Part shown: positions 9,182-51,397 of the stretch, piece by piece | Layout: each line of letters begins with the position of its first letter | How positions within the stretch are numbered: position 1 is the first letter of the stretch | From: an uncultured Campylobacter sp. | Lineage (GTDB): Bacteria > Campylobacterota > Campylobacteria > Campylobacterales > Campylobacteraceae | Length of the DNA stretch: 64,000 bases | Assembly: GCA_963530195.1 (NCBI GenBank) | Contig: CAUSCW010000004.1 | Coordinates: 5,937-69,936, forward strand | Direction of reading: 5' to 3' | Translations under genes and position numbers: made by a program | Notes under the pieces: model-generated | What the model saw: only the letters and a program-made list of their open reading frames with translations | Told to the model about the DNA's origin: nothing | Databases searched by the model: none

Positions 9182-10342
9182 ATGAGCTCGCTTTTGAAGC
9201 GCAATAAAATTTTGTTTAACGTCCATCTTATTTTGTCGATCGTTTTTTCTATCCCGCTGCTTATCATTGGCGTTACGGGCGCGATTTTGTCGTATCAGCA
9301 CGAGCTTGAGGCGCTAATAAACGCGGGCTCTAAAAAGGTCGAAAAAACAGGCGAAATGCAAAGCGTGGAGAAAATCCTGCAAAGCTTTAGCGAGCAAACG
9401 GGCGCTAAGCAGCCCGTAAGGCTTGTCGTGCCCAAAAGCGATGACGAAGCCTTCGTCATTTACGCAAACAGAAATGATGCGTATCTAGTCGATCCGTACA
9501 CCGCGCAGATCATCGGCAAGGATCGCGGCACGGGCTTTGTGCTAACGGTGATGTCTCTGCACCGAAATTTGGGTTTAGCGCTAAGCGGCAACAAAACCGC
9601 GGCCGAGATCGGCAAACAGATCGTAGGCGCGAGCGTCGTGGCGATGATACTGCTTGTAATAAGCGGCGTCTGGCTGTATTTCCCAAGGCTTAGGCGTAAA
9701 TTTATCGAGGCGATAAAGCCGAATTTTAAACTCAAAAAATACGCTCTTTTTTATAACCTACACACAAGCCTAGGCTCGCTAAGTGCGGTGATTTACCTGC
9801 TTATCTGCTTAACCGGGCTTAACTGGTCGTACGGCTGGTATAACGATGCCGTGATGAAGCTTTTCGTAAGTTCGCAAAATTTGCCGCAAGCTAGCGCACC
9901 TAAAGCCGCCACTTCTAAAGATCACGCCGCCGCACCTGCTAAAGAGGAGGGCAAAAAGCCCGCTACGTATAAATTTAGCGACGCGCAGAGGGCTTATGAG
10001 ATATTCAGATCAAGTGGCATAGAGTATAAAGAATTTACCCTAATGCTCGCAGCCGGAGATAAGATCGGCGTCAGGTATTATGAGCCCGACGCGCCCGCTA
10101 CCGCCCGTCCAAAAGGCGCGAGCGTGAAGCTAAAGGAGGGCAAAGTCGCACAGCAGAAGCAGACGGACGGTATCACCGTGGGCGAGTTTAAAGACGCGAA
10201 CTATCAGCTTCACACGGGCTATTTTTTTGGGCTCGCGGGTAAAATTTTATGGTCGCTCATCTCGCTTTGCATGGCGCTTTTTATCTTTAGTGGCTTTTAT
10301 ATGACGGCAAAAAGGGCGTTTAAGTCAGAAAAGCTCAGCTAA
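9182..10342 (+). CDS. PepSY-associated TM helix domain protein (iron-regulated membrane protein family)
   Basis: HLILSI...GVTGAIL, VDPYTAQIIG, SLH, LHTSLG...LTGLNWSY, LHTGYFFG...SGFYM. Confidence 0.9.
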   Translation: MSSLLKRNKILFNVHLILSIVFSIPLLIIGVTGAILSYQHELEALINAGSKKVEKTGEMQSVEKILQSFSEQTGAKQPVRLVVPKSDDEAFVIYANRNDAYLVDPYTAQIIGKDRGTGFVLTVMSLHRNLGLALSGNKTAAEIGKQIVGASVVAMILLVISGVWLYFPRLRRKFIEAIKPNFKLKKYALFYNLHTSLGSLSAVIYLLICLTGLNWSYGWYNDAVMKLFVSSQNLPQASAPKAATSKDHAAAPAKEEGKKPATYKFSDAQRAYEIFRSSGIEYKEFTLMLAAGDKIGVRYYEPDAPATARPKGASVKLKEGKVAQQKQTDGITVGEFKDANYQLHTGYFFGLAGKILWSLISLCMALFIFSGFYMTAKRAFKSEKLS

Positions 10343-10554
10343 ATTTTACCCTCATGGCAAAGAGGTGCGACGAGCGGCGCAAGAGAGCCGAATACCTACA
10401 AAGCATTGAGATGAAATTTGCCGAAGCGGATCAGGAAAAGCTCTGATTTAACAATATTTGAGACATACTAAAATTATCGCGGATTAAGTCTATGTGAGAT
10501 ATATCGCTTTCGTGCATTTTGCTCTAGCTCGCTTTTAAATTTTGCGATTTCGGC

Positions 10555-11568
10555 TTAATGGGTTCTGATAGACATGATTTTATTTAGCTTCGTTTCATTC
10601 GCCTGAGCAAAACAAGCTTTGTCAATTTTGCCTTTTTGAAAATCTTGATCTAATTTGACTTTTAAGCGTTTGAAAATTTCCTCTTTTGAGCCGATACTGA
10701 TTAGTTTGTAGATCTCTTTTTCATCGGTTAAAATTTTATTCCTATCGCTATTTCTATCAATGGCGATAATATTAATTTTATCCCCGAAATGCTCTTTTAG
10801 CTTTTTTAAACCGCTCGGCAAGTTGCCTTGGATGCTAGACATAACTTCAATGCTCCCGCCGCGCCCATATTCGTTAAAGCGCTTAAAAGTATTGGCTAAA
10901 GCCTTTTCGGGCTCTATATGCACTGCAGCAATTGTAACGTCTAATCTATTTTGCAAGCATTGCTCTATTTTTGGGATAGTCGGCGCCGGGTTTGCCAACT
11001 GCCCTTCAAAAATAAGTTTAACTTTGTCATCAGTCATAAAATTTTTAACCGAGGTTGTTTTTCCGGCTCCCGGAATTCCGGTGATGAAAATTGCTTTGGT
11101 TTTATTAGGCTCATCGCGCTTCAAAACCTCTTCAAACTGCGTCGCCGCTAGAACTGCGGAAGAATTATGTATAGCATCGTTTACTAACGCCCTATTTTCT
11201 TTTATTTCAAAGCAAGGGAAAAGTTCTTTGAATGTATCGGAACAAATATAACGACCACCTGTGGTATTAGGGTGCTCATTATATTCTTTTAAAAAATCCT
11301 CCAAAGAATTTTCAGCAAGGACAATCGCTTCGTCTTGAATTTTTATCAATTCGGCATTAAAGCTGAAATCAATCTTTTTTATTGCGCTTACTAACTTTGA
11401 TTGGCTATTTCTTATACCTGCTTGTCGTATTCTTTCAATACTCTTTTTTGGAGCACCGCGATAAAGTTGCTTTTCTATTTTCTTGCGATATTCAGCGTCG
11501 TTTTCCATTCGCGTTAAATGATCGCTCACGCCCTGCCACATTTTCATCTCTTCTTCTGTTAAAGCCAT
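10555..11568 (-). CDS. Zeta toxin (UDP-sugar kinase, ng_zeta1-like) with N-terminally fused epsilon-like antitoxin
   Basis: Walker A GIPGAGKT (11079-11056), GGRYICSDTFKELFP, IFEGQLA, KRFNEYGRG. First ~56 aa helical and resemble ng_epsilon1 (recalled). RBS AAAGGA. Confidence 0.85.
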   Translation of the reverse strand: MALTEEEMKMWQGVSDHLTRMENDAEYRKKIEKQLYRGAPKKSIERIRQAGIRNSQSKLVSAIKKIDFSFNAELIKIQDEAIVLAENSLEDFLKEYNEHPNTTGGRYICSDTFKELFPCFEIKENRALVNDAIHNSSAVLAATQFEEVLKRDEPNKTKAIFITGIPGAGKTTSVKNFMTDDKVKLIFEGQLANPAPTIPKIEQCLQNRLDVTIAAVHIEPEKALANTFKRFNEYGRGGSIEVMSSIQGNLPSGLKKLKEHFGDKINIIAIDRNSDRNKILTDEKEIYKLISIGSKEEIFKRLKVKLDQDFQKGKIDKACFAQANETKLNKIMSIRTH

Positions 11569-11594
11569 TTCAAGTCCTTTCTAAGAAATTTGTA

Positions 11595-11621
11595 GTATTT
11601 TAATACATTCTAATTATAGCA
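11595..11621 (-). promoter_or_regulatory. Extended -10 promoter of the toxin gene with a downstream palindrome
   Basis: TGCTATAAT at 11621-11613; GTATT-TT-AATAC at 11595-11606. Confidence 0.55.
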
Positions 11622-11873
11622 TTTATCTTTCTTATAATTATGCAACAAATGTATCTTGGGCCGCAGAAATACGCTTTTGAGTTATATGGGATATTACTAC
11701 GATGAAAAAGAGAAAACAATAAAACAAATATCAAATAAAGAGCGATAAATGGCGAATATAACTAAATTTTACCTTCGCGACAAGGGCGGTAAATTTATAA
11801 AATTTTACCTCGCTAGCGAAGATGATAAATTAAAATTTACCCGCCGAGCCTGCTTAAAATTTCTTATTTAGCG

Positions 11874-12374
11874 TTATTTGCCTCTTGCTCCGCGAGTGAT
11901 CATCAAGGACTGTTCGTAGAAAATTAGCAGCGTTATTGAAACGCCCGTGCCGAGCGCCAGCGAGATCGAGATCGTGGCGAGGGCGTTGTCGAAAAACGAG
12001 ATGAGGTGGGCGAGCTTCTGCTGCGCGTCCACGGCTTTGATATAAGAAAACAGCGCCAAAACTGTCTTGTAAGCGTAGATGCCCGGGATCATCGGAAGCA
12101 GCGCGGGAAAGGCGATGATCTCTGCGGGCACCTTGAGACGCTTGGCGCAGGGCATCCCTAAAATGCCGATCAGAAACGACGCAAAAAGCGTCGCGGCGGC
12201 GATCGAAAAAATTTGGCTTTGAATCAGTAAAAACCTGCACGAATGCGCAACCGCCGCAAGCAGCGCCGAGAAAATGAGCGTCTTTTTGGGCGGCATGCAC
12301 GCATATGCAAACCCGAGCCCCGCCGCAGCGGCAAAGCAAGCATCCTTAAATACCAAAAGCGCTATATCAAACAT
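11874..12374 (-). CDS. Threonine/serine exporter family small subunit (YjjB/ThrE_2-like)
   Basis: AAAAGLGFA, PAEIIAFPALLPMIPGIYAY; overlaps the ThrE-family gene. Confidence 0.85.
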   Translation of the reverse strand: MFDIALLVFKDACFAAAAGLGFAYACMPPKKTLIFSALLAAVAHSCRFLLIQSQIFSIAAATLFASFLIGILGMPCAKRLKVPAEIIAFPALLPMIPGIYAYKTVLALFSYIKAVDAQQKLAHLISFFDNALATISISLALGTGVSITLLIFYEQSLMITRGARGK

Positions 12375-13620
12375 TTACAAGCCCTAAATTTGAGATACTA
12401 AGCGTCAGAAATAGCCCGATCGCGATGCAGATGATCAAAAGCCCCGTGTTCAGCCCTCTGCTGATGCCTACGAGCATATTTTCGTTTAGGATGTCAAAGA
12501 CGGAGTTGATCAGCCAGACGCCGGGGATCAAAAAGAGTATGCTAGATCCCACGGCGACGTCGGGCGTGGCGCTAAGCCCGTAGCGAGCGCCTAGCGAGAC
12601 GATGAAGGATACTGCGAACGAAACTGCGATGTATTGGATTTTTAGGTTGATTTTAAGCTTGCTAAGCAGATAGCGGGCGCAAATTCCAAAAGCCGTAGCC
12701 GCAAACACTAACGCCATCGCGCCGCCATCGCCGTCGAAAAGCTCGCAGAATGCGGCATTTGCGACGCTGAGTAGAACGAGGGTTTTGGCAAAGCTTTTCT
12801 TATGTGAGGCTAAAATTTCTGCAAATGCAGCCTTAGCGCGCGCAAGGGGGATTTTCTCGTCGTAAATTTCCCAGCTAAGCGCGCTTAGCTCCGAGATCAG
12901 ATCGAAGCTGATTTGCGCCGCGGCGCCCGTTTTGACATAGGTGCGGCGGATGGAGTTGTCCGCAGGATCCATCACACTGATGATGAAGTGGCGCACGAAG
13001 ATCATCAGGCTCGCCTCGTAGCCGTAAGCGCCCGCGATCCTGCATACGCAGCGCTCGATACGCGCGGTGTAGGTGCCGATGCTAAGCATCTTGGCGGCGT
13101 ATTCGCTAAGAAAATTGGTAAGCTCTTGGATTTGCGGTCTCGCCGCTTCTGCTTCTTTTGCTGCCGCCATTTCCGCTGTCGCTATTTTCTCCGCCGTCTC
13201 CACCGTCGCAACGGTATTTTGCATTGCTTTCGTCGTTTTTATTCCTACGGCGTTCGTCACAGCCTCTGTTTTTATAGCGCCCGCCGCCGTTTTTGATGCC
13301 GCTTCAGCGCCCGCTGCCGCGGAATTTTTATTTTTAAAATTTAATGCAGCGGCAGCGCCCGTGGAGGAATTTTCACTATCTAAATTTGATGCGGCGACAA
13401 TACCTGCGGCGGTAAAGCTTTGGTCGCTTAAATTTTGATCGTTCAAATTTAACGCCGAGGTTAAATTCTTGCCGCTAGAATTTCTTGTCGCAGCAGCGGA
13501 GCCTTCATCGCTCAAATTTGAAGCGGTGGAATTTTGCTCTTTTAAAGAATTCTGCTCACTTAAATTTAAACTTTCGGCGTCCTCGCAAGATCCGCTAAAT
13601 TTAGAATTTTCCCTGCTCAC
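12367..13620 (-). CDS. ThrE/YjjP family exporter with ~160-aa low-complexity N-terminal extension
   Basis: MLSIGTYTARIERCV, ANAAFCELFDGD, LFLIPGVWLINSVFD; N-terminus rich in NL/NS and Ala. Confidence 0.85.
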   Translation of the reverse strand: MSRENSKFSGSCEDAESLNLSEQNSLKEQNSTASNLSDEGSAAATRNSSGKNLTSALNLNDQNLSDQSFTAAGIVAASNLDSENSSTGAAAALNFKNKNSAAAGAEAASKTAAGAIKTEAVTNAVGIKTTKAMQNTVATVETAEKIATAEMAAAKEAEAARPQIQELTNFLSEYAAKMLSIGTYTARIERCVCRIAGAYGYEASLMIFVRHFIISVMDPADNSIRRTYVKTGAAAQISFDLISELSALSWEIYDEKIPLARAKAAFAEILASHKKSFAKTLVLLSVANAAFCELFDGDGGAMALVFAATAFGICARYLLSKLKINLKIQYIAVSFAVSFIVSLGARYGLSATPDVAVGSSILFLIPGVWLINSVFDILNENMLVGISRGLNTGLLIICIAIGLFLTLSISNLGLVNV

Positions 13621-15818: not shown

Positions 15819-16494
15819 TTACTTTAGCGTCCTTAATCTCAAAATGTCGGTGCCTAAAACGAAGCGTGGCGGGCATTTTGTGCGTCACGATGACGACGCA
15901 GGCGTTCCACGACTCGCACGCCGAGCGCAGCAAATTCCAAATAATGGCGCTGGAGTAGTCGTCCAAATTTCCCGTAGGTTCGTCGCACAGCAGCAGGCGC
16001 GGATTATGCGCCATCGCACGCGCCAAAGCCACGCGCTGCTGCTCGCCGCCGCTAAGCTCGAGCGGATACTTGCCCATCTTGTGTCCGAGCTCGACGTGGC
16101 GCAGTAGCTTTTTGGCTTGGTCTTGGCAGACCTGCTGATTGTAGCCCATTATCATTAACGGAAGCATTATGTTGCGCTCGATCGTCCATTCGTTGATCAG
16201 GCGGTAGTTTTGAAAGATAATGCCGATGCGCTGGCGCAGGGTGCGCAGATCGGAGTTTGTGATGCCCTTTAGATCGCACAGGCAGACGTTCAGCTCGCCG
16301 CCGATGATGTCGATGCCGCCGTAGAAGGACTTAAGCAGCGTGGATTTGCCGCTGCCGCTCTTGCCCGTGATGATGACGAAATCTTTCGCGCCGATGCCGA
16401 AACTCGCGTCTTGGATGACTGCGCCCGCCTTTTCGTAGCCTAGCGTGAGACCCGCTGCGGTGATGATGTTGTAATCGTCCGTTATCTCTGCCAT
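15805..16494 (-). CDS. ftsE: Cell division ATP-binding protein FtsE
   Basis: [33 protein letters not shown]; likely start ATG 16494 (MAEITDD). Confidence 0.92.
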
Positions 16495-18659
16495 TGTGAA
16501 AATATCTCCGAAATTTTTTGATGTGCCGCGTGGTTTTCGCGCGTAGGAAGCGGGCGGCGGATGAAGTAGCGCGTACCGCTTGCGTTTGCGCGGATAAAAC
16601 ACTGCTGCGGAAAGTCGAATGCCCCGAGCGAAAGCAGGATTAGCACGTCTTGCGGCTCGGCAGCGCACGGCTTGCTTTGCCGTTCGTCTTGCGGCTCGGC
16701 GCAGCTTGGTTCGCTTTGCCGTTTATCTTGCTGCTCGGCACAGTTTAATTTGCCTTGGTGTTCGGCTTGCAACTCGTCATGGCTTGGCTCGCTTTGGTGC
16801 TCAACTTGCGACTTGATAGAGTTTGACTTATTTTGTAATTCTGCTTGCGGTTCAGCAGCGCGGTTTAGCTCGTTTTTCAGTTCGGCTTGCGGCTCATTTT
16901 TGTAAGATGCGGCACTTGCGTTTGTTGTATTTTTAGTATTCGCTGCGCCGCCGTCTGTTAAATTTACGCCCTTTGCGCTCAAGCGATCCTCGTTTAAATT
17001 TGCGCCCGTTTCATCTGCATGGTTTGTATTTAGTGCGTCGCTCGCTTTTTTTAGAATTTGCGTAACGTTCGCTTCGTCTGTGCGGGTCGCATTTGGCGTG
17101 GCGCTCTCTTTTATTGCACTGGTTGCTGAGAATGAGCCGTCCAAATTCGGCGCATTGTTTGTATCTATTGTGCCGATCGCTGCGGGTGTAGTGCTCGCAC
17201 CTGTTGCGTCGATAGCTGCAAGCGCACCCTCCGTGCCGCTTGTTGCGATCTGCTCGCAGGCTAAAGCGCGCTTTTTGCCAGGGGCAGTGCGGCTAAATTT
17301 AGCGCTTACCGCGATGGGAACGTCGCTCGTTAAATTTACGCCGCTTGCGCTCAAGCGATCCTCGTTTAAATTTGCGCCGGTTTCATTCGTGCGGTTTGTA
17401 TTTGGCGCGGCGCTCGCTTTTTTTAGAATTTGCGCAGCGTTCGCGCAAGCTGAAATTTTATCGCCCGCTGTCGTAGCTGAAATTTTGCCGCAGTCTACCG
17501 AAATTTCATCCGTGCTTGCGCGCTCGGTTAAATTTTTGCCGCGCGTTGCGCCTAAATTTATAGCCTCGCCGTTTATAGCTTCGCCCGCGCCGCTTAAATT
17601 TACGCCGTCCGCCGCGCAAGCTCCGTCCGCATCCAAGCTTTTCTGCGCGTCAAAGTAAAAAATTTCCTCAAAATGCACGAAAAAATCCTCGCCTTTGAAG
17701 GTAGAATTTTTAAAATTTCGCGCGATTGCCGCCGCGTCAAATTTTAAAAATTCCATCTCAAACCGCTGCGGTTCGCCCTGGCCCGCGGTTTTGTTCTCGT
17801 AGATCAGATCATAGATGTCTTTATCCATCTTGCGCCATCTATCCTCGTATTTGCTCGCTATGGCGGCGTCTCGGTTTTTAAAATGCAAAATTTCGCCTGC
17901 TTTGCGCTGCACGTAGGGCGAGAGCTTTTGCATCGCGTAGAGGAAGTACTCCTCGCTGTCGGTGCGAAGCTCGAAGCGACCGCCGAGCTCGAGCGTGCGT
18001 GCGATCTGCGAGGCGAACTCGTCGCTTATGACGCGGCGGTGCGGTGCGTCGTCCCACGGCACGGGGAAGTGCAAAAACACGCGCTGCAGGCAGCCCGCGG
18101 GAAGCAGGCTCAGTAAAACCCGCGCGTCGGTGGCTATGAGAGCGATGTTTTGCAGCCCCTCGCGGATCGCTAGCTTTGCGACCTGCTCGATTGCGGGCTT
18201 GTAAATTTCGATGCCGATTATCAGCGCGTCTTGATTTGAGCGCGCTTGATGAAGCAGGTGTCTGCCCGAGCCGAAGCCGATCTCGATGAAAATTTTATTA
18301 AATTTAGAGCTTTTTATGAGGGATAAAATTTCATTCTCGTCCAAAATTAGCGGCGTTTTTTCGGTAAGCGAGCTGTCTTTGTAAGCAAACGCCTGCGAGA
18401 TGATCGGCCCGCAGAAGCGCTCTTTAAAAATTTCGAGCGCTCGCTGCAGATGACCGATCTTGGCGGGCTTGGTGATCTTTTCGCCCTTTACTATCACCTT
18501 GTCGCCGCTGGGCTTAACGATGATAAAAAACTCGCTATCAAAGCTTTTGGTTCGCACGAGCGTCAGGTTTCTGCCGCGCGCCGTTTCTAAAAATTCGGTC
18601 TCGCCGAGCTTAATCGGCAGCCGCGGCAGGCTCACGCTGCGGGTTATGAAATTTGGCAA
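16482..18659 (-). CDS. trmB: tRNA (guanine-N7)-methyltransferase with ~334-aa internal insert
   Basis: IEIGFGSGRHL, LHFPVPW, ELRTD, SKYEDRW; low-complexity insert at about 16650-17651. Confidence 0.92.
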   Translation of the reverse strand: MPNFITRSVSLPRLPIKLGETEFLETARGRNLTLVRTKSFDSEFFIIVKPSGDKVIVKGEKITKPAKIGHLQRALEIFKERFCGPIISQAFAYKDSSLTEKTPLILDENEILSLIKSSKFNKIFIEIGFGSGRHLLHQARSNQDALIIGIEIYKPAIEQVAKLAIREGLQNIALIATDARVLLSLLPAGCLQRVFLHFPVPWDDAPHRRVISDEFASQIARTLELGGRFELRTDSEEYFLYAMQKLSPYVQRKAGEILHFKNRDAAIASKYEDRWRKMDKDIYDLIYENKTAGQGEPQRFEMEFLKFDAAAIARNFKNSTFKGEDFFVHFEEIFYFDAQKSLDADGACAADGVNLSGAGEAINGEAINLGATRGKNLTERASTDEISVDCGKISATTAGDKISACANAAQILKKASAAPNTNRTNETGANLNEDRLSASGVNLTSDVPIAVSAKFSRTAPGKKRALACEQIATSGTEGALAAIDATGASTTPAAIGTIDTNNAPNLDGSFSATSAIKESATPNATRTDEANVTQILKKASDALNTNHADETGANLNEDRLSAKGVNLTDGGAANTKNTTNASAASYKNEPQAELKNELNRAAEPQAELQNKSNSIKSQVEHQSEPSHDELQAEHQGKLNCAEQQDKRQSEPSCAEPQDERQSKPCAAEPQDVLILLSLGAFDFPQQCFIRANASGTRYFIRRPLPTRENHAAHQKISEIFSQWQR
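16957..17444. repeat. 116-bp imperfect direct repeat inside the trmB insert
   Basis: 16957-17072 and 17329-17444 (offset 372), encoding QILKKAS..NTN...ETGANLNEDRLSA.GVNLT twice. Confidence 0.9.
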
Positions 18660-18662
18660 ACT

Positions 18663-19337
18663 TTATTCTGCCTGCGCTGCGGCAATGACTGCACTAGGCT
18701 TGGACAGCTCTCCGCTTTCGGTTTTGACGGTGATGCGGTATTCGTATCCTTCGCCGTAATCGATATTGTCGATATATTCAGCACTAAGTCTGCCGCGAAC
18801 CTCTTTAATCGTGCTCCACGACTCGCCTCCTTTAGGACGGCGCTCGATTAGATAGGAGCTTACGCGAAGATCCGGATGCGGGCGCCAGATGATCTTAACG
18901 CGGCCAGGAAGCCCGTAGATCGCCTGCGCAAACGGCACGGACTCTAGCATTTTCGCCGTGCTTGCGATAGCGACTGGAGAAGGAGCCGAAACGCCCTTGG
19001 CGCCGTATGTGCGCACGGTGTATTTATACGAAGTGCCCGGCTGCAGCCTCGTATCTACGTAGTGAGTGGAGTATGGATCTGCGATGGTGGCGATCTTTTT
19101 GGCTTCGCCGCCGCTTGCGGGCGCTCGGTAAACGACAAAGCCCAGCACGGCGGCATCACCGTCGTATCTAGGCCACTCAAGCCCGATCTCATTGTCGCTC
19201 GTGATCGTCCTAATCCCCTCTACACGCGGAAGACTCTCGTCGCTTGCACTAGGCGCGCTAGACATAGCGCAGCCACCCGCTAATATCGCTAAAGTAGCGC
19301 TCAACGTTAGTCGGTAAAATTTTTTCATAAATTTCAT
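18663..19337 (-). CDS. Fibronectin type III domain lipoprotein (FlpA-like, two Fn3 domains)
   Basis: Lipobox LAGGC; YVDTRLQPGTSYKYTV, YEYRITV; syntenic between rluD and trmB. Confidence 0.8.
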   Translation of the reverse strand: MKFMKKFYRLTLSATLAILAGGCAMSSAPSASDESLPRVEGIRTITSDNEIGLEWPRYDGDAAVLGFVVYRAPASGGEAKKIATIADPYSTHYVDTRLQPGTSYKYTVRTYGAKGVSAPSPVAIASTAKMLESVPFAQAIYGLPGRVKIIWRPHPDLRVSSYLIERRPKGGESWSTIKEVRGRLSAEYIDNIDYGEGYEYRITVKTESGELSKPSAVIAAAQAE

Positions 19338-20940
19338 CCTTTACCTTTTGATTTGTCGTAAAATTTAGAAATTCGCTCGGCAAGCCCGCGCAAATTTTCA
19401 CCTCTTTGCCGCTTCGCGGATGGATGAAATAGAGCAAATAGGCATGGAGCAAAATTCTGCTAATTTTAGCGTTTTCGCTCTTAAATCCGTATAAATGATC
19501 GCCCAAAATGTGCCGATTTATCGAGCTTAAATGCACGCGGATCTGATGCGTGCGACCCGTGAAGAGCTTCGCCGCGACGAGATTGAAGCTCTTTAGGCTT
19601 ATCGGTGGCAGAATTTGGTTTTGAGCGGGATTTTTAAAATTTAAAGTTTTATTCTCGGCAAGACGGGCGGCTCTGGTTTGATCCGCGCTCATATCGGCGG
19701 ATAAAATTTTGTCGGCGCCCGCATATGCGCTCATTTTGGCGGTTAAAATTTTATCTACGTTATCCGCGCGGTTGCTTGGAATTTTATCTGCGCTTTGGAT
19801 TGAAATTTTATCCACGCTACGCATATGATTATTTAAAACTTTATCCTCGCCTGCGTAGTCGTTTAAAATTTTATCCATGCCCGCGTTCTTGCTCGCGCTC
19901 GATCCGGTAGTTGAAATTTCATCTGTGCCGGCGGATGGGTCTGCATTTAGAATTTCGTTCCCGCGCACGCTCACGTCGGTGGCTAAAATTTTACTCATAT
20001 CTGCGTCCCTGTTAGCGTTTAAAATTTTATCCTCGTCCGCATACATAGCCGAGATTTTGCCCGTATCTGTGGTTGCGTCTAAAATTTTATCGACATCTAA
20101 AATTTTATCCGTAGCGTCACCAGAAATTTTGTCCTTAGCCGAAATTCTACTTGCGCTTGCGTTCGCAGCTAAAATTTTATCGGCGGCTGAAATTTCATCC
20201 ATGCCCGCGCTCTTGTCGGCAGCTGTACCATCGCCCGCGCTCGTACTTGAAATTTCATTGCTCTTTTCGGCGGATTTTTGAAGTTCCGTTAGTTCCGCTC
20301 CGCTAAGAATTTCATAAAACGCGCTCTTTGCGCTGCGTCCGCCGGGCACAATCCCCATTTTTAGACGGTTTGCTGGGTTACGAGCGATAGGACGCTCGAT
20401 TACGCAGGGCTGCTTCAGCGGCAGGTCGATTAGCGCGAGGTATATCCGCCCCATGCTCTTATCGCTTAGCTGCGCCGAGAGCGCGGCGTGCGCGGCGTTG
20501 TTTTTAGCGACGAGCAGGGCGCCGCTGGTGAGTTTATCCAGGCGGTGCACGATGCCCGCGCGAAGCTCGCCTCCGAGCGTGGAAAGCAGATAGCCGCGAG
20601 AGTTGAGCCAGTCCACAAGCGTGGGCTCTTTAACGCTTGCGGCGGGATGGACGGTAAGGCCCGCGGGTTTATTTACCACGAGCAGATCATCGTCCTCGTA
20701 TAAAATTTCAACGTCGAAATCCAGCCGTTGCGCGCTTGTTTGCTGCGGCGCGGGCGCGGGGTAGTCGATGTGCACGAGTTCGCCAGCGGATAGCTTGTAG
20801 CCGGGCCTGCTCTGCACGACCCCGTCCACTCTGACCGCTTCGGATTTGATTAAATTTGATATTTGATTGCGCGAAATTCCAAGCTGCGAGCTTAAAAAAA
20901 CATCGAGCCTTTCGCTACATTGTGCTATTAGATTATCCAA
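19258..20940 (-). CDS. rluD: RluA/RluD family 23S rRNA pseudouridine synthase with ~235-aa insert
   Basis: S4 domain RLDVFL, VNKPAGL, HRLDKLTSG, TGRTHQIRVH, GDHLYG; DKIL/DEIS repeat insert at about 19590-20300. Confidence 0.9.
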   Translation of the reverse strand: MDNLIAQCSERLDVFLSSQLGISRNQISNLIKSEAVRVDGVVQSRPGYKLSAGELVHIDYPAPAPQQTSAQRLDFDVEILYEDDDLLVVNKPAGLTVHPAASVKEPTLVDWLNSRGYLLSTLGGELRAGIVHRLDKLTSGALLVAKNNAAHAALSAQLSDKSMGRIYLALIDLPLKQPCVIERPIARNPANRLKMGIVPGGRSAKSAFYEILSGAELTELQKSAEKSNEISSTSAGDGTAADKSAGMDEISAADKILAANASASRISAKDKISGDATDKILDVDKILDATTDTGKISAMYADEDKILNANRDADMSKILATDVSVRGNEILNADPSAGTDEISTTGSSASKNAGMDKILNDYAGEDKVLNNHMRSVDKISIQSADKIPSNRADNVDKILTAKMSAYAGADKILSADMSADQTRAARLAENKTLNFKNPAQNQILPPISLKSFNLVAAKLFTGRTHQIRVHLSSINRHILGDHLYGFKSENAKISRILLHAYLLYFIHPRSGKEVKICAGLPSEFLNFTTNQKVKDEIYEKILPTNVERYFSDISGWLRYV

Positions 20941-34447: not shown

Positions 34448-35399
34448 GGGCAAAATTTATGATTTTATGAAATTTAGATATTTTACCTTTGCGCTTTCTG
34501 CTGTTTTGATAATAGGCTCTATTGCGCTGTTTTTCATTAAGGGCATTAATTACGGCATCGATTTTAGCGGCGGTACGCTCATTCAGGTTAAATATGATGC
34601 CAAAGCGCCGCTTGATGAGATTAGAAAGCGCTTCGAAGCGGCAAATTTAGGCAATATCAACGTTACGGAATTTGGTAGCGATCAAGAGGTTACGATTAGA
34701 TATTCGGGCGCTGCGAGTGAACTGGGCGATAATCCCGCCTTAGCGGCGCAAAAAATTTTGCAAGGTAGTGGAAACTTCGACATTCGCAAGGTCGATATCG
34801 TAGGTCCTAAAGTCGGCGAGGAGCTTCGCACAAACGGAATTTTAGCGGTATGCGTGTCGTTTGCGCTCATTTTGGTTTATATCACCCTGCGGTTTGAGTG
34901 GAGATTTGCGGTCGCCGCAGTGCTATCGGATCTGCACGACGTCGTAGTCGCCGTAGGCGCGATGATTTTAGCTGGCGTGGATTTCAACCTTGAAATTTTA
35001 GCTGCACTGCTAACTATAATGGGCTACTCGCTTAACGATACTATCGTTGTTTTCGATAGAATTCGAGAGGGTGTAAAAGATAGTAAATCGATTAAGCTTG
35101 ACGAGGTTATAAACGAATCAATCTCTCATACGCTATCGCGCACGCTGCTTACTTCGCTTACGACTCTCATCGTCATCGTGATTTTATTCGTCTGGGGAGG
35201 TGAGATGATCCACGGCTTTAGCTTCGTGATGCTAATAGGCGTCATAGCAGGAACATTCAGCTCCGTATTTGTAGCTGCTCCGATGCTGATTTTGTTTAAA
35301 TTTAATGTCGAGAAATACCGCGCGTTTTTAGCCGAAAAACAGCGCCGTATTAAAGAGAAAGAAAAGAATCGCGCCATGTATGAAAAAGGCACGGTGTAA
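34431..35399 (+). CDS. secF: Protein translocase subunit SecF
   Basis: GIDFSGG, GYSLNDTIVVFDRIRE. Confidence 0.97.
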   Translation: MQVFDKGKIYDFMKFRYFTFALSAVLIIGSIALFFIKGINYGIDFSGGTLIQVKYDAKAPLDEIRKRFEAANLGNINVTEFGSDQEVTIRYSGAASELGDNPALAAQKILQGSGNFDIRKVDIVGPKVGEELRTNGILAVCVSFALILVYITLRFEWRFAVAAVLSDLHDVVVAVGAMILAGVDFNLEILAALLTIMGYSLNDTIVVFDRIREGVKDSKSIKLDEVINESISHTLSRTLLTSLTTLIVIVILFVWGGEMIHGFSFVMLIGVIAGTFSSVFVAAPMLILFKFNVEKYRAFLAEKQRRIKEKEKNRAMYEKGTV

Positions 35400-35408
35400 G
35401 GATAAAAG

Positions 35409-35750
35409 ATGAACTGGGGAAGGGTAATTTACATATTTTTTGCGCTGATGAGTATGACTACGATAGGCGGGTTTTTGTATGAGAAGAATGAAATTTTACT
35501 TTTCATAGCAACCAGCGTGAATGCAGTCTCGACGCTTTTGAAGGTAGGCGTGCGAAATATGCTAGCAGCCGAGCTTTTTGCAAGCTCGCTCGTAGCGGAT
35601 CTGCATCTCATACCGGCGTTCGTTTTGATTGTAGTAGCGCCGGGAGATCTATCGATCGTGACCTCGCTTGCGATCGGCGCGCTACTTGCAAACTTTTTCT
35701 CGCTAATTTTAATAGCGATCGAGTCGGCAAAAACTAAAGACGAATTCTAG
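35409..35750 (+). CDS. Conserved Campylobacterota membrane protein between secF and leuS (DUF6394-like)
   Basis: MNWGRV...ASSLVADLHLIPA; family assignment from recall. Confidence 0.7.
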   Translation: MNWGRVIYIFFALMSMTTIGGFLYEKNEILLFIATSVNAVSTLLKVGVRNMLAAELFASSLVADLHLIPAFVLIVVAPGDLSIVTSLAIGALLANFFSLILIAIESAKTKDEF

Positions 35751-45312: not shown

Positions 45313-46007
45313 GCGCGACCGAGCTTTTTATCGCGCTTTTTCGCGTCGTGAAAATCAAGGATTTTCGCTGGTGGCCCGCGTTTGGAAGCTTTGAGGTGGT
45401 CGTAGGGGCGATTTTGATCCAAAATACGGCGTGGCGCAATGCCGATGCGGCACTGCAAAACCTGCGTAGCAAGGAGCTTTTGAGCTTAGAAAGCATCGCC
45501 GGGCTAGACGAAGCGGAGCTTGCGGAGATCATCAAAGTAAGCGGATTTTATAATCAAAAAGCTAGGCGCCTAAGCTTGCTTTGCAAAGCGATAATCGCGG
45601 ATTTTGGGGATTTTGAGAGCTTCAAAGCGGGCGTTAGCCGCGAGTGGCTGCTAGCGCGCAAGGGGATCGGCGCGGAGAGCTGCGATGCGATCTTGTGCTA
45701 TGCGTGCGAGCGTGCGATGATGGTCGCAGACAGCTATTCGGCGCGGCTGCTCGGGGCTTTGGGCTATGAGTTTGAAAGTTACGACGAGCTTAGCGCGTGG
45801 CTCGGCGAGCTGGAATTTGAGCGGATCTATGAGTTTGTAAATTCCGCTAATTTTCCCTGCGATGCGGCGGCAAAAGCAGAGAAGCTGAAGAACGAAAACG
45901 GCGCGTATGCATTATTTCACGGGCTCATAGTGGAATTTTGTAAAGCGCATTTGAAAGGTAAAATTTTCGATGAGAGCGCGAAAATAATTTTAAATGATTT
46001 GAGGTAG
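45309..46007 (+). CDS. HhH-GPD family DNA glycosylase (endonuclease III-related)
   Basis: FEVVVGAILIQNTAW, SGFYNQKA, KGIGAESCDAILCY. Confidence 0.88.
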   Translation: MSATELFIALFRVVKIKDFRWWPAFGSFEVVVGAILIQNTAWRNADAALQNLRSKELLSLESIAGLDEAELAEIIKVSGFYNQKARRLSLLCKAIIADFGDFESFKAGVSREWLLARKGIGAESCDAILCYACERAMMVADSYSARLLGALGYEFESYDELSAWLGELEFERIYEFVNSANFPCDAAAKAEKLKNENGAYALFHGLIVEFCKAHLKGKIFDESAKIILNDLR

Positions 46008-46009
46008 AT

Positions 46010-48070
46010 ATGTTTAACACTAAAATTTTAGAAAATTTAATGGTTGCTTTTTGCTTTTGTATAACGCTTGCGTTACATTTACTGATATTTAACCATTACT
46101 TCTCACTCCAAGAAGGCTGGTGGGAAACCTATGCTTATTTAGTAAATAGGGGAGAGGTAATCAATAAAGATTTTTATCTAGCATGGACTCCGTTATTTGT
46201 ATATATAAACGCCTTCTATCAAAAAATATTCGGAATAAATTTTTTTGCTTTTGCCTGCATCGGTGTAGTAGCTGCAATGATACAGGTAATTTTATTGTAT
46301 TTGGTTTTAAGAGAATTTTTTTCAAAACCGGCTAGTGCTATAGGAGCTCTTTTTGCGACATTTTTAAATATAAACAGCGGTACTTATATTGCCAAAGATT
46401 ATCATACGTATGTATATATTACCGAATTTTTAACATTACTATTTTTGATAAAATATATAAAAAATTATAATTCTAACATAGGCAGATTTTATCATATAAT
46501 TGGAATTTTATTTTGTGTTTTATTGTTTTTTGTTAAACAAAATGTGGGCCTGGTCCTTTTTGCCGGTTTGTTTGTTGCATATGCTTTTGTTGCTATAAAC
46601 TTTAAAGATTATATAAAAAGAATTTGCTTTTTACTCATTATTTCGGCTATATTTTTTACTATCATGAATTTTATCATTCCTTTTAATTTATCTTCTATAA
46701 CAGAAAATGATTCCAAGGGCAGTTTTTTCGCTATGGCCACGAGATTTGCTACATATCCTTTAAACCAAACTATATTAAAAAATTCGCTTATTGTATCAAT
46801 GGTTGCACTTATCTTGTATATTATTAGATTAAAAATAGCAGAAATTTATACTAACCTATATAGAAAAATGATAGCCAAAACTACAATAGAATTTCGTATA
46901 TTAATGCTTATTATATTACATATAATTATAATATACTGTATGTTTGTCAGGATGAGTGGAATTGGAATAGAAATAAAGAATTTTATATCTCTTTCAATAG
47001 GTATTATTTTATTCTTACTGTATATATGCTTCAATAGAAATAATATAGTCGGTAATTCATCAAAGATATATGCCTTTATGATTGTAGCCATGGCCGCCAT
47101 ATCTTATTCGGGTACTTTGGCTGATGCTTTTACGGCGAGTGGTAATATGATATGTATAGCTTTTGCCAGCGCATTTATTATAAATATAAGTAGATTAAGA
47201 CAAATAAAATACATTACTATATATATACATTTAATAATAATATTTTTTATGTTTTTAGCAACTATAAGAATGCCGTATTATTGGAATTTCAATACTCAGG
47301 TAGATATCTTTAGCGCCAATTCTAAAAGTTTATACGCTCAGTTAGATGGTATTTATATGGATGAGCGGATATCAGATATTTTTGATTATTTTGATAAGTA
47401 TGTAGCTACTAAATCTAAAAACCAAAAAGATTTCTATTTTTTTAACTTTCCTATAATGTACTTATTGAATAATAAAATTCCACCGTATTATTTAGTAACT
47501 CATTGGCTAGATGTGTCATCGTCCAAGGCTATATCTAGGGAATATGATGAATTTGTCAAATCTCCTGCGCAAAATATTGTTATGTATCAATATCAGACAT
47601 TTTTCTTTACTGTGCACCGGAATTTTCAAGTTAAAAGCTCTTTTAAACAGCTTGATTTTCATGAAACCATGAATAAATGGGTGCAGGAAGGGAAATATAA
47701 ATTTATAAAGTCATTTGTAGTTCCATATGATAATGTGCCGGTCGAGGAAGAAAAAAACCATCTTCTTAAAAATATGTTGATTATTTTGCAAAATGAAAAA
47801 TTTTTCGGCATGGATAGGTCACAATTTACGGAGTGGTTAAAGGGAAACGGTATAACATTAGTTACTATTAGACGTGATAAAAAAATAGCTACTGACCAAA
47901 ATGACACAAAGCAAGAAGATGACCGTTTGCAAAATGGTGATGTATTACAAATGGATGGTAGTATCGTTGATCTGTGCAGGGTATTTCCAACTCTAGGAGT
48001 AGCTCCGACTGAAGCAACCTTTTTCAACACAATTAACGTATATGAAAAACAAGGAGATCGTAGTGAATAG
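46010..48070 (+). CDS. Multi-TM GT-C-fold glycosyltransferase (GtrC-like), copy 1
   Basis: About 11-13 TM, acidic first loop QEGWWETYA, FFVKQN, C-terminal soluble domain; low GC; upstream of gtrA/gtrB. Confidence 0.65.
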   Translation: MFNTKILENLMVAFCFCITLALHLLIFNHYFSLQEGWWETYAYLVNRGEVINKDFYLAWTPLFVYINAFYQKIFGINFFAFACIGVVAAMIQVILLYLVLREFFSKPASAIGALFATFLNINSGTYIAKDYHTYVYITEFLTLLFLIKYIKNYNSNIGRFYHIIGILFCVLLFFVKQNVGLVLFAGLFVAYAFVAINFKDYIKRICFLLIISAIFFTIMNFIIPFNLSSITENDSKGSFFAMATRFATYPLNQTILKNSLIVSMVALILYIIRLKIAEIYTNLYRKMIAKTTIEFRILMLIILHIIIIYCMFVRMSGIGIEIKNFISLSIGIILFLLYICFNRNNIVGNSSKIYAFMIVAMAAISYSGTLADAFTASGNMICIAFASAFIINISRLRQIKYITIYIHLIIIFFMFLATIRMPYYWNFNTQVDIFSANSKSLYAQLDGIYMDERISDIFDYFDKYVATKSKNQKDFYFFNFPIMYLLNNKIPPYYLVTHWLDVSSSKAISREYDEFVKSPAQNIVMYQYQTFFFTVHRNFQVKSSFKQLDFHETMNKWVQEGKYKFIKSFVVPYDNVPVEEEKNHLLKNMLIILQNEKFFGMDRSQFTEWLKGNGITLVTIRRDKKIATDQNDTKQEDDRLQNGDVLQMDGSIVDLCRVFPTLGVAPTEATFFNTINVYEKQGDRSE

Positions 48071-48397
48071 CTCCGTTAGAGATAAATTTGTATTAATACT
48101 GTGCTTGAGCATAATATTAATACCGCATCTCTTTATATTTGACCATTACTTCTCACTCCAAGAAGGCTGGTGGGAAACCTATGCTTATTTAGTAAATAGG
48201 GGAGAGGTAATCAATAAAGATTTTTATCTAGCATGGACTCCGTTATTTGTATATATAAACGCCTTCTATCAAAAAATATTCGGAATAAATTTTTTTGCTT
48301 TTGCCTGCATCGGTGTAGTAGCTGCAATGATACAGGTAATTTTATTGTATTTGGTTTTAAGAGAATTTTTTTCAAAACCGGCTAGTGCTATAGGAGC
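46092..48397 (+). repeat. 256-bp identical direct repeat shared by the two GT-C genes
   Basis: 46092-46347 equals 48142-48397, compared base by base (offset 2050). Confidence 0.95.
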
Positions 48398-50105
48398 CAC
48401 TTTTGCTAGTTTTTTATGGTTTAGTATGGAGACATATATACCGAAGGATTATCATACCTACGTCTTCATCATAGAATTTTCTACCCTACTATTTCTAGTA
48501 AAATCCATAAAAAATGAGAATTCTAAACAAGGCGTTATATATCAAATATTTGGAATTTTATTTTTAGTCCTACTTTTTTTCATAAAGCAAAATGTGGGAT
48601 TGGTTCTTTTTGCAAGTCTTTTTGTATCTTATGCTTTTATATCTAGTAGCGTAAAAAATTATTTTAAAAGAATAGGATTTTTACTACTCTTTACTATTAT
48701 ATTCTTTGCATCCATAAATTTCATAATGCCTTTTGATCCTTCATCAATAACAGATAATGATTCAAAAGGAAGTCTATGGACGATAGCGACGAGGTTTATT
48801 TTTGAACCAGAGCTTAGTCGGATATTAACAATAAGTGTGTTGGAATTTTTTATAATATTAATTCTTGTACATTTTAGAAAAAAGATTGTATATCTATATG
48901 ATGCATTGGTAGGACAAATTGCAGCAAGAACAACTATCTTATTTCGGTTTACTATCGTAGCTATTGGACTGACTGCGCTTACTTATATTGCTTTATTTCA
49001 TAACACTGTTATATTATATATTATTAAATATATCTCTTATATTAGCTTTTCCATAGCTATGATTTTGTATATCATGTTTGCTGCTATGTTTTATAAAAAC
49101 AGTAGCATTTTTGGATCAAAAATTTATATTTTCATTACTTTTTGTGCTGCTGCTATAGTTTATAGTAATACTTTCACTACTATCGCCTTAAATATGAATA
49201 GCATTCTTTTGTGTGCAGGGTTGGCATTCGGCTTTTTATTAAATCAAAATTTGCGCAAAATAGCCAGGATTTTATTGATCTATTGGATGCTTGTAATGGT
49301 ATCTTTCATAATATACGTAAAATTTTTAATACCATATAACTGGCTTGAAAATTATCAAGGTAGTGTATTCGAGGCCAAATCCGAGACCTCATATATTCCT
49401 TTAAAAAATATTTATATGAATCAGAAATTATCTTATATTTTTGACTATATTCATGATTATGTACCTAAAAATACAGTATCTGACAAAGATTTTTACTTTT
49501 TTAACTTACCAATAATGTATCTTTTAAATGATAAAATTCCACCATATCACCTAGTAACGCAATGGTTTGATGTAACTCCAACAAAACTGATTAAACAAGA
49601 ATATATTAATTTTACAAATAGACCAACCGAGAACATTGTTTTATATCAATACTATAAAAAAGCGTTTGATATAAACAAAAGACTTTTGAGAAAAGATGAT
49701 TTTATTCAAGAAGATTTTTATAAAGTAATGAATAAATGGGTAAAGGAGGGTAGATATAAATTTATAAACTCCTTTGTTGTACCTAATAGCTTGATGTTTA
49801 ATAATGCATCTAAAAATTTAAATATCCAAACAGATGTAATAATTCAAAATAGTAATTTTTTCGATCAAAGTTATGAAAGGTTCTATTTATGGCTACAGGA
49901 TAGCGGCGTAAATATTATGCAGATCACTAGAGACGGAGCCGTTTTGCAAGATATTAATAATACAATTAAGAATTCTGATATAGTAACCTTGAATGGTAAT
50001 GTAACCAATATAATGGAAATTTTACCTCAACTTGGGGTTGAGCCGATTGATACGGTAAATTTTAATACTATAAATATTTATAGACGAAATGGTAGCTATG
50101 ATTAA
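48063..50105 (+). CDS. Multi-TM GT-C-fold glycosyltransferase (GtrC-like), copy 2
   Basis: Paralog of copy 1; probable GTG start at 48063 after AAGGAG. Confidence 0.65.
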   Translation: MNSSVRDKFVLILCLSIILIPHLFIFDHYFSLQEGWWETYAYLVNRGEVINKDFYLAWTPLFVYINAFYQKIFGINFFAFACIGVVAAMIQVILLYLVLREFFSKPASAIGATFASFLWFSMETYIPKDYHTYVFIIEFSTLLFLVKSIKNENSKQGVIYQIFGILFLVLLFFIKQNVGLVLFASLFVSYAFISSSVKNYFKRIGFLLLFTIIFFASINFIMPFDPSSITDNDSKGSLWTIATRFIFEPELSRILTISVLEFFIILILVHFRKKIVYLYDALVGQIAARTTILFRFTIVAIGLTALTYIALFHNTVILYIIKYISYISFSIAMILYIMFAAMFYKNSSIFGSKIYIFITFCAAAIVYSNTFTTIALNMNSILLCAGLAFGFLLNQNLRKIARILLIYWMLVMVSFIIYVKFLIPYNWLENYQGSVFEAKSETSYIPLKNIYMNQKLSYIFDYIHDYVPKNTVSDKDFYFFNLPIMYLLNDKIPPYHLVTQWFDVTPTKLIKQEYINFTNRPTENIVLYQYYKKAFDINKRLLRKDDFIQEDFYKVMNKWVKEGRYKFINSFVVPNSLMFNNASKNLNIQTDVIIQNSNFFDQSYERFYLWLQDSGVNIMQITRDGAVLQDINNTIKNSDIVTLNGNVTNIMEILPQLGVEPIDTVNFNTINIYRRNGSYD

Positions 50106-50463
50106 ACGACAGGCCGTCAAGTTTCTCCTCGTAGGCATCCTAAATACTGCCTTTGGATATGGGCTATTTTCATTATTCATTTACGCTGGGCTTCACTATT
50201 CACTAGCAGTATTATTGTCTACTATCTTTGGTATTATGTTTAATTTTAAAACTATAGGTAAATTGGTCTTTAAAAGTGATGATAATAGTCTGATTTTCAA
50301 ATTTATATTTGTTTACATCATTACTTATTTTTTAAATATATTTTTTCTATGGCTTTTCAAGTGGCTTGGATTTGATAATATGTATATAAACGGTTTTGTG
50401 CTTTTGATCCCGCTAGCTGCGGTATCATTTTTATTAAATAAATTTTTCGTCTTTAGGAGATGA
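50098..50463 (+). CDS. gtrA: GtrA family flippase-like protein
   Basis: KFLLVGILNT...FLLNKFFVF; 4 TM. Confidence 0.88.
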   Translation: MIKRQAVKFLLVGILNTAFGYGLFSLFIYAGLHYSLAVLLSTIFGIMFNFKTIGKLVFKSDDNSLIFKFIFVYIITYFLNIFFLWLFKWLGFDNMYINGFVLLIPLAAVSFLLNKFFVFRR

Positions 50464-50464
50464 T

Positions 50465-51397
50465 ATGAAAAAGATCAGTATAGTTACCGCCTGCTTTAAT
50501 GAGGAGGAGAATGTAGAGGAAGTCTATGCGCGCGTAAAAAAAGTTATTGGCGAATTTCCGGAGTATGACTACGAGCATATATTTATCGATAATGCTTCGA
50601 CTGATAAAACAGTTGAAATTTTAAAACGCCTTGCAAAGGATGATAAAAATTTAAAGATCATCGTAAATTCTAGAAATTTTGGCCACATCAAATCACCAAC
50701 TTATGCGCTTTTGGGTGCAGACGGAGATGCTGTTATCTCTATCGTAGCCGATTTGCAAGATCCGCCCGAGATGATTGCGCAGTTTATAGAAAAATGGCAA
50801 GAGGGCAACGACTTGGTTTTGGCTATTAAGCGAGATAGCGAGGAGCGCGGCGTGATGTTTAAAATCAGAGAATGCTATTACGAGCTCTTATCAAAACTAT
50901 CTGAGATCGAAATTTTTAAGAATTTTACCGGCTTTGGACTTTTTGATAAAAAGGTCATCGCGGCTCTTAGACAGATGCATGATCCGTATCCGTTTTTTCG
51001 AGGAATGCTCGCGGAAGCCGGTTATAAGGTAGCTAAGATCCCTTACGATCAACCGGTAAGAATTAAAGGAGTTACCAAAAACAACTTCTACACGCTTTAT
51101 GATATGGGGATACTCGGTATAATCTGCAATTCCAAAGTACCACTTCGGCTCGCGACTTTTATAGGCATGATAATGGGTATTTTAAGCATAATAGTGGGGC
51201 TTGTGTATTTTATCCTGAAACTCATATATTGGAACGAAATGAGCGTGGGGATCGCGCCTCTTATCATACTTTTTTCGTTCGTTTCATCTGGAATTTTATT
51301 TTTTATCGGTATAATAGGCGAATATATCGGGGCAATTTATACACAAGTGTTGAATCGCCCATTGGTATTTGAAAAAGAAAGAGTAAATTTTGATTAA
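50465..51397 (+). CDS. GT2 polyprenol-phosphate glycosyltransferase (GtrB-like)
   Basis: SIVTACFNEE, IDNASTD, SRNFGH, ADLQDPP, two C-terminal TMs, GEYIG. Confidence 0.9.
   Translation: MKKISIVTACFNEEENVEEVYARVKKVIGEFPEYDYEHIFIDNASTDKTVEILKRLAKDDKNLKIIVNSRNFGHIKSPTYALLGADGDAVISIVADLQDPPEMIAQFIEKWQEGNDLVLAIKRDSEERGVMFKIRECYYELLSKLSEIEIFKNFTGFGLFDKKVIAALRQMHDPYPFFRGMLAEAGYKVAKIPYDQPVRIKGVTKNNFYTLYDMGILGIICNSKVPLRLATFIGMIMGILSIIVGLVYFILKLIYWNEMSVGIAPLIILFSFVSSGILFFIGIIGEYIGAIYTQVLNRPLVFEKERVNFD

Follow-up and report, generated by a model that had tools for sequence, protein, structure and literature searches.

A Campylobacter gene that joins an ngε1-like antitoxin and an ngζ1-type kinase in one chain: a candidate cis-inhibited toxin

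When a toxin and its antitoxin are made as one chain, does the toxin still function, and what could release it? This question is raised by a gene in a 64,000-nucleotide stretch of DNA from an uncultured Campylobacter sp. (GenBank assembly GCA_963530195.1, contig CAUSCW010000004.1), hereafter the window. The original prediction, made from the letters of this DNA, was a fusion of an epsilon antitoxin and a zeta toxin of the ngε1/ngζ1 type of Neisseria gonorrhoeae, encoded in one 337-aa ORF. As presented in Table 1, we found this ORF on the minus strand, and all the motifs quoted from its protein (NDAIHNSSAVL, GIPGAGKT, KRFNEYGRG and others) are present. An identical 337-aa protein was found on six contigs from NCBI, Logan and ENA. 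The gene is AT-rich, with a GC content of 0.376 compared to 0.472 for the genome.

Table 1. Position of the fused gene, its parts and its neighbours in the window.
Feature	Position	Strand	Basis or remark
Fused epsilon1-zeta1 gene	10555..11568	minus	single ORF, 337 aa
ngε1-like antitoxin domain, aa 1-56, three helices	11401..11568	minus	profile against 6EPG_A, shuffles, short homologues, models
Fusion junction	11398..11415	minus	one base fewer than split alleles; ancestral toxin ATG lost here
ngζ1-type kinase domain, aa 57-326, without OB/KfrB domain	10591..11400	minus	6EPH_B, model, Pfam
D111, equivalent to catalytic Asp56 of ngζ1	11236..11238	minus	alignment; residue roles as given in PMC5923241
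Walker A, GIPGAGKT	11056..11079	minus	K170 corresponds to ngζ1 K115
Remnant of lost C-terminal tail	10448..10554	minus	16 readable codons past the stop, then a deletion of about 620 bp
Candidate promoter and Shine-Dalgarno region	11575..11621	minus	
Candidate extended -10 promoter, TGCTATAAT	11621-11613	minus	position and conservation only
Shine-Dalgarno, AAGGA	11579-11575	minus	6 nt ahead of the ATG of the fused gene
PepSY-TM gene, downstream flank of the slot	9182..10342	plus	PF03929, synteny
ThrE exporter gene pair, upstream flank of the slot	11874..13620	minus	PF12821 and PF06738, synteny

Searched alone against the PDB, residues 1-56 had ngε1 as their sole match, a weak one (E 0.032). When seven such N-termini were combined into a profile, with ngε1 itself left out, ngε1 (PDB 6EPG_A) was matched at E 1.5e-8, and the pairwise score of 66 between the N-terminus and ngε1 was reached by none of 5000 shuffles. 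These results confirm the predicted homology to ngε1, and its extent is wider than the residues 20-50 or so first proposed, reaching over about residues 5-56. We also recovered 31 short homologues of this part (43-95 aa), mostly free antitoxins. Pfam and NCBIfam models miss the domain, and an ESM Atlas search with residues 1-60 returned no usable match. Its helices were predicted both in the whole-chain model and in a model of the isolated domain (pLDDT 87.7), the third helix spanning residues 41-49 in the former and 41-55 when the antitoxin was folded alone. Fold searches with the isolated domain were too weak to be informative (6EPG_C ranked first, at E 2.4; Z 3.3). By sequence profile and pairwise comparison, a cognate ngε1-type antitoxin precedes the kinase, as in the ngε1/ngζ1 toxin-antitoxin system.

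Residues 58-325 match ngζ1 (6EPH_B) at E 9.8e-92, with 147 of 264 aligned residues identical (56%), and Pfam PF06414 scores above its cut-off in this domain. The AlphaFold model of the whole chain (112 sequences; pLDDT 91.5, pTM 0.90) aligned over 270 positions with ngζ1 residues 1-270 (VIA Z 37.5, rmsd 1.1-1.2 Å), compared to Z values of at most 11 for other zeta toxins. The kinship with ngζ1 predicted for about residues 57-337 is thus borne out in sequence as in modelled fold, where the superposition reaches an rmsd of 1.1 Å. The residues of ngζ1 for catalysis and UDP-MurNAc binding are named in PMC5923241, and the seven active-site residues that we checked are all retained (D111, K114, N130, K170, T171, R230 and R236), K114, N130, R230 and R236 corresponding to ngζ1 K59, N75, R175 and R181. 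All 31 unique near alleles retain these seven residues, as do all 22 fused proteins compared across four groups, apart from a T-to-S replacement at one position in the P0039 group. Overall, the match in sequence and fold, with the P-loop late in the chain, and the conserved catalytic and UNAM-binding residues place the fusion in the ngζ1 subfamily. The predicted lack of the C-terminal OB-fold region was also found, the protein ending 12 aa past the kinase with no PF18790 in it; this absence is unremarkable, since PMC5923241 describes the OB/KfrB domain for gonococcal and Eikenella homologues only. According to the same source, ngζ1 phosphorylates UDP-MurNAc, UDP-GlcNAc and UDP-glucose at the C4'-OH, and the products are dead-end metabolites. 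By homology, the fused kinase would phosphorylate UDP-sugars at the C4'-OH and cause cell lysis. Kinase domains of the ngζ1 type also occur within multidomain proteins of up to 2003 aa (P0053, P0100, P0221, P0276 and P0319), one of them with a Fic domain.

No in-frame ATG, GTG or TTG lies in codons 21-74, in agreement with the claim that the domain junction has no ATG. An internal restart yielding free toxin was considered and rejected: no ATG, GTG or TTG having a Shine-Dalgarno is found in codons 2-130, and in the alleles that retain the old toxin ATG it is out of frame. Since no in-frame restart exists near the junction, free toxin would require clipping or displacement of the N-terminus. 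The gene had also been credited with its own promoter. A Shine-Dalgarno and a motif conserved in 17 of 18 aligned rows, TGCTATAAT, do lie upstream; the promoter is a candidate only, as the motif occurs three times in the window against 3.4 expected by chance, and it was not listed by a sigma-70 scan.

To describe the junction, we aligned the DNA of 17 loci and the window. In split alleles, an antitoxin gene of 63-66 aa overlaps the toxin start in a different frame, and the closest of these alleles (L010-L013) have, in comparison with fused ones, one additional base directly after the ATG of the toxin. This ATG is kept out of frame in 9 of 21 unique fused alleles and is lost in the other 12, including that of the window. 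We infer that the fused gene arose from a two-gene pair through the loss of a single base, the split state being ancestral, since the distant unfused homologues P0029 and P0030 start likewise (MAQ-x-KL) and since the fused pair nests among unfused sequences in trees, whose unfused rows include protein-only ones, the upstream antitoxin gene being confirmed for the loci with DNA. A separate antitoxin gene is present in the split sister alleles only. The Campylobacter population still holds the presumed split ancestor, a fused intermediate with the relic ATG and the fully fused allele. Fused alleles are less diverse at the junction (0.033-0.039) than in the flanks (about 0.05-0.08), and on the flank tree they do not cluster (11 changes versus a shuffled mean of 11.5). 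This pattern fits one haplotype spread by recombination and is no proof of selection.

The ORF of the window terminates earlier than most of its relatives. The deletion of about 620 bp beyond the tail remnant took out a second zeta relic, of streptococcal type, that is found in sister alleles. Downstream of zeta1 in L010 (7183-7691), and also in L004, L012-L014, L056, L057 and L061, we observed an ORF of 91 aa along with a classical zeta gene in truncated form (PF06414, GGQPGAGKS). Together they look like a relic of a second epsilon/zeta pair, an echo of the tandem pairs of gonococcal plasmids; the 91-aa ORF had no match to gonococcal epsilon2.

A GTDB scan returned 19 loci, every one from uncultured Campylobacter. 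We take the host to be an oral Campylobacter, probably of the C. gracilis group, judging from the published C. gracilis homologues of ngζ1. Among 78 genomes of the genus, 23 gave a match, 22 with the zeta gene and one with antitoxins only. The fused form is the commonest state (16 of the 22 gene-carrying genomes, the other six being split); it was recognised by ORF in 15 genomes, one of them IS-interrupted, and in one with a cut 5' end by a stop-free match and the junction. Recurrence in other assemblies had been proposed as a check, and the fusion is indeed carried by the closed, single-contig genome G004 and by further metagenome contigs. Matches were also found in 96 plasmid records; the 40 of these that were listed are gonococcal and have two annotated genes each. 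The insertion site is common to nearly all loci with flanks, the exceptions being L016, which differs on its upstream side, and G047, which has a second copy elsewhere. The ThrE flank occurs at high identity in 58 of the 78 genomes, and the zeta1 gene is missing from most sister genomes. The interval between PepSY and ThrE (window 10343-11780) behaves as a swappable slot: among 15 zeta-less loci, nine (L103, L107, L109, L114-L116, L120, L126 and L128) carry an unrelated orphan gene of at most about 320 aa, sometimes broken, two (L111 and L125) have an empty slot, and the other four end before the slot can be judged.

Other loci showed related genes in mobile settings. The closed genome G011, where zeta1 had no match, contains two orphan epsilon1-type antitoxin genes (L096, 10743-10955 and 14755-14943) on an island that looks mobile and carries further genes resembling toxin-antitoxin systems; they are possible anti-addiction genes. 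A 273-284-aa gene without a Pfam family precedes epsilon1 in mobile-type contexts (L016, 1778-2632; L044, 710-1564; L042, 602-1423), close to a Phd/YefM antitoxin gene in the case of L016 and L044, and is probably part of a donor element.

We then compared constraint on the two forms, with partial and duplicate loci dropped and inserted bases ignored. The kinase dN/dS was 0.085-0.10 for 21 fused alleles and 0.11-0.15 for 10 split ones, compared to 0.07-0.12 for three flanking genes. Of the variants private to fused alleles, 19 were synonymous and as many nonsynonymous (a ratio of 0.26, departing from neutrality at p=5e-5), and the singleton ratio was 0.13-0.17 in the fused kinase versus 0.05-0.23 in the flanks. 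The kinase of fused alleles is under purifying selection similar to that on neighbouring genes; recombination importing sequence from split alleles may partly lower its dN/dS. The antitoxin part had a higher private-variant ratio (0.47, not significant) and no dN/dS above 1. Broken forms were also observed. One of the 21 full-length fused alleles (L062) has a frameshift near codon 100, the fused allele of G052 is interrupted just past Walker A by an IS (end of L018, start of L019), and P0132 is another fused form, truncated. The IS has a 17-bp terminal inverted repeat, and its ends also occur elsewhere in the genome of the window (G000 contig C11, near 34919-35650). Kinase breaks were found in none of the 10 split alleles.

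Has such a fusion occurred once? With 7994 candidates scored, the antitoxin profile found at least five clusters among proteins longer than 104 aa, all of them zeta fusions: P0002 (229 members, some of them split or partial proteins), P0039 (Campylobacter JMF isolates), P0035, P0032 and P0049. Three fused groups besides that of the window (P0032/P0035, P0039 and P0049) are 46-61% identical, keep the full active site and end 5-12 aa past the kinase; none of them was found among the 325 family or 401 phylum genomes searched. Fused proteins occupy three separate positions in a tree of 43 rows and are united in none of its bootstrap trees, and an AU test on 24 rows under a simpler model rejected a single fused clade (p=0.003). 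By the starred branches, fusion must have arisen at least twice, and the four kinds of junction point to as many as four origins; the placement of P0049 is unsure, its branch being long and of odd composition. In an all-against-representatives search, only one of the best 150 matches aligned from the N-terminus with the antitoxin, and it was the cluster holding these fusions. The longer matches P0254, P0299 and P0315 were rejected as antitoxin fusions by epsilon profiles. Most unfused homologues (P0004-P0048) end in charged tails of 45-135 aa, which we take to resemble conjugative type IV secretion signals.

The reading that we favour, with moderate confidence, is that the fused protein is a functional UDP-sugar 4'-kinase of the ngζ1 type, inhibited in cis and probably released by clipping or displacement of its N-terminus. 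As described in PMC5923241, ngε1 is an extended chain over the ATP site of ngζ1. The tethered antitoxin would cover this site in cis and hold the kinase inactive; once residues 1-56 were clipped or displaced, the kinase would be on and would phosphorylate UDP-sugar cell-wall precursors at the C4'-OH, preferring UDP-MurNAc as ngζ1 does, leading to arrest or lysis. In the whole-chain model, residues 50-58 are unwound into a linker. The pTM of 0.90 and the shortened third helix are compatible with docking of the antitoxin in cis; the local confidence of the model is no proof of it, since the antitoxin alone also reaches a high pLDDT. As a trigger we prefer stress-linked clipping, for example under oxidative stress, because ngε1 is degraded under oxidative stress in gonococci and E. 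coli (PMC11964940). Post-segregational killing is not expected, since a single chromosomal gene yields the two parts in a 1:1 ratio. What counts against clipping is that processive proteases probably would degrade the whole chain and not free the toxin. EzeT and CapRel are functional precedents. We count in favour of this function the retained active site, the purifying selection, the prevalence of the fused allele, its scatter over flank backgrounds and the more than one origin, and against it the frameshifted L062, the IS-cut G052 and the absence of the gene from most sister genomes. More speculatively, and with clearly less confidence, stranded chromosomal ngε1/ζ1 modules may have turned repeatedly (two to four times) into tail-less single-chain switches. 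These would be peptidoglycan-precursor kinases whose tethered antitoxin responds to one particular signal, for example a protease, redox stress or a phage protein, and the Campylobacter population would still contain each stage between the addiction module and the sensor-effector.

The losses at the locus could also be read as decay. Fusion would then have locked the toxin permanently, and the allele would have spread by removing the risk that a stranded plasmid module is activated by accident, and would now be slowly lost. Several observations go in this direction: the adjoining second zeta gene is truncated or deleted, the tail is gone in many fused alleles and reduced to 5-12 aa in other fused groups, fused alleles are found frameshifted, IS-interrupted or truncated, and the slot is often empty or taken by another gene. 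However, a locked and useless kinase should drift, and the constraint equals that on the flanking genes even for singletons; outright gene loss would have brought the same relief, and the three other fused groups retain the full active site. We consider a permanently locked toxin unlikely, though it deserves to be weighed seriously.

An improbable alternative is that binding of a phage protein makes the antitoxin release the kinase, causing abortive infection, in the manner of CapRel, which PMC9712102 describes as activated without proteolysis. The patchy and exchangeable distribution and the repeated fusion would suit such a role, and a phage trigger had been put forward as a possibility in the original prediction. 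This part of it was not supported: 54 pattern matches in viral contigs included no relative, the one phage match was weak (24% identity), the matches of PADLOC and NCBIfam were at the level of the P-loop only, no defence genes were recognised at the site, which is flanked by core genes, and the antitoxin part, as seen above, has no dN/dS above 1. Slightly less probable still is a leaky enzyme whose tether only damps the kinase, so that UDP-sugar pools for peptidoglycan or LPS would be tuned continuously at a low level. The conserved kinase, the constitutive-looking candidate promoter and the 1:1 stoichiometry agree with this, as does the N-terminus of EzeT, which "strongly attenuates" kinase activity (PMC10532202); such tuning is hard to reconcile with the dead-end nature of ngζ1 products (PMC5923241) and with a gene dispensable in most sister genomes. 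A role in anti-addiction, with the gene retained for an antitoxin part that neutralises zeta1 toxins brought in on plasmids, is very improbable: split pairs do occur in mobile-looking contexts (L044 and L016) and orphan antitoxin copies in G011, but a tethered antitoxin would already be occupied by its own kinase, and the constraint on catalytic residues would be left unexplained. Finally, a join made by assembly or sequencing error can practically be discarded: although the window belongs to a 105-contig assembly, the fused form recurs in 16 genomes, single-contig G004 included, and in further metagenome contigs, bears additional changes at the junction, and is crossed at that point without a gap by a contig of an independent run.

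Compared to ngε1/ngζ1 of the conjugative plasmids of N. gonorrhoeae (PDB 6EPG/6EPH/6EPI; PMC5923241), the fusion has homologous parts, the antitoxin ahead of the kinase as on the plasmids, the same active-site residues in a kinase 56% identical, the same rewired topology and, in some sister alleles, a second zeta pair adjoining. It differs in being one chromosomal chain instead of two genes and in lacking the OB/KfrB domain or a tail, and loss of a separate antitoxin cannot release the fused toxin. EzeT of E. coli is, as reported in PMC4826407, PMC4803016 and PMC10532202, likewise a chromosomal single chain with an N-terminal cis antitoxin and a C-terminal zeta kinase, thought to derive from an operon fusion. 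In contrast to the Campylobacter protein, it belongs to another zeta clade and acts as a UNAG-3' kinase, with an N-terminal domain of about 83 aa and toxicity only below 30 °C; the unfused form of the Campylobacter fusion, probably ancestral, and the intermediate allele persist in the population. An origin independent of EzeT, as predicted, is supported; according to PMC10532202, ngζ1 and EzeT belong to separate clades. The fused toxSAS CapRel resembles the present case as a fused toxin-antitoxin that also has unfused members and in which fusion or fission has recurred, and differs by an unrelated toxin, a C-terminal antitoxin, a prophage location and demonstrated phage sensing (PMC9712102). 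Streptococcal epsilon/zeta and PezAT (PDB 1GVN, 3Q8X and 2P5T) share the zeta kinase fold (Z about 10-11, rmsd 4.5-4.9 Å, PF06414), whereas their antitoxin is a three-helix bundle, the complex is a heterotetramer, phosphorylation is at the 3'-OH and the topology is another.

Proteins of C. gracilis have been given as the closest or second-closest homologue of ngζ1 (CAMGR0001_1552 in PMC2848598; WP_005872309.1 in the supplement of PMC5923241). The words "fusion" and "fused" are absent from the main text and supplements of PMC5923241, whose alignment figure shows the kinase domain only, and no ngε1-ζ1 fusion turned up in a literature search that covered few of the subscription journals. Fused toxin-antitoxin systems are already known from EzeT and CapRel; what appears to be new is a single chain of the ngε1/ζ1 type together with its split form, an intermediate and parallel fusions. 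The operon origin of EzeT is only inferred; here, near-identical split, relic-ATG and fully fused alleles share one chromosomal site. Together with the independent fusions and the solved structure of the unfused complex, these alleles make the effect of fusion on a type II system, defusing it or rewiring its trigger, directly testable. The case also illustrates that "orphan" zeta genes can conceal an antitoxin undetected by Pfam or NCBIfam models.

Elsewhere in the window, two genes (16482-18659 and 19258-20940), presumably TrmB-like and RluD-like, carry long in-frame low-complexity repeat insertions. Two stretches, 1-2000 and 46001-51000, have a low GC content (0.25-0.35) and are probably other acquired islands.
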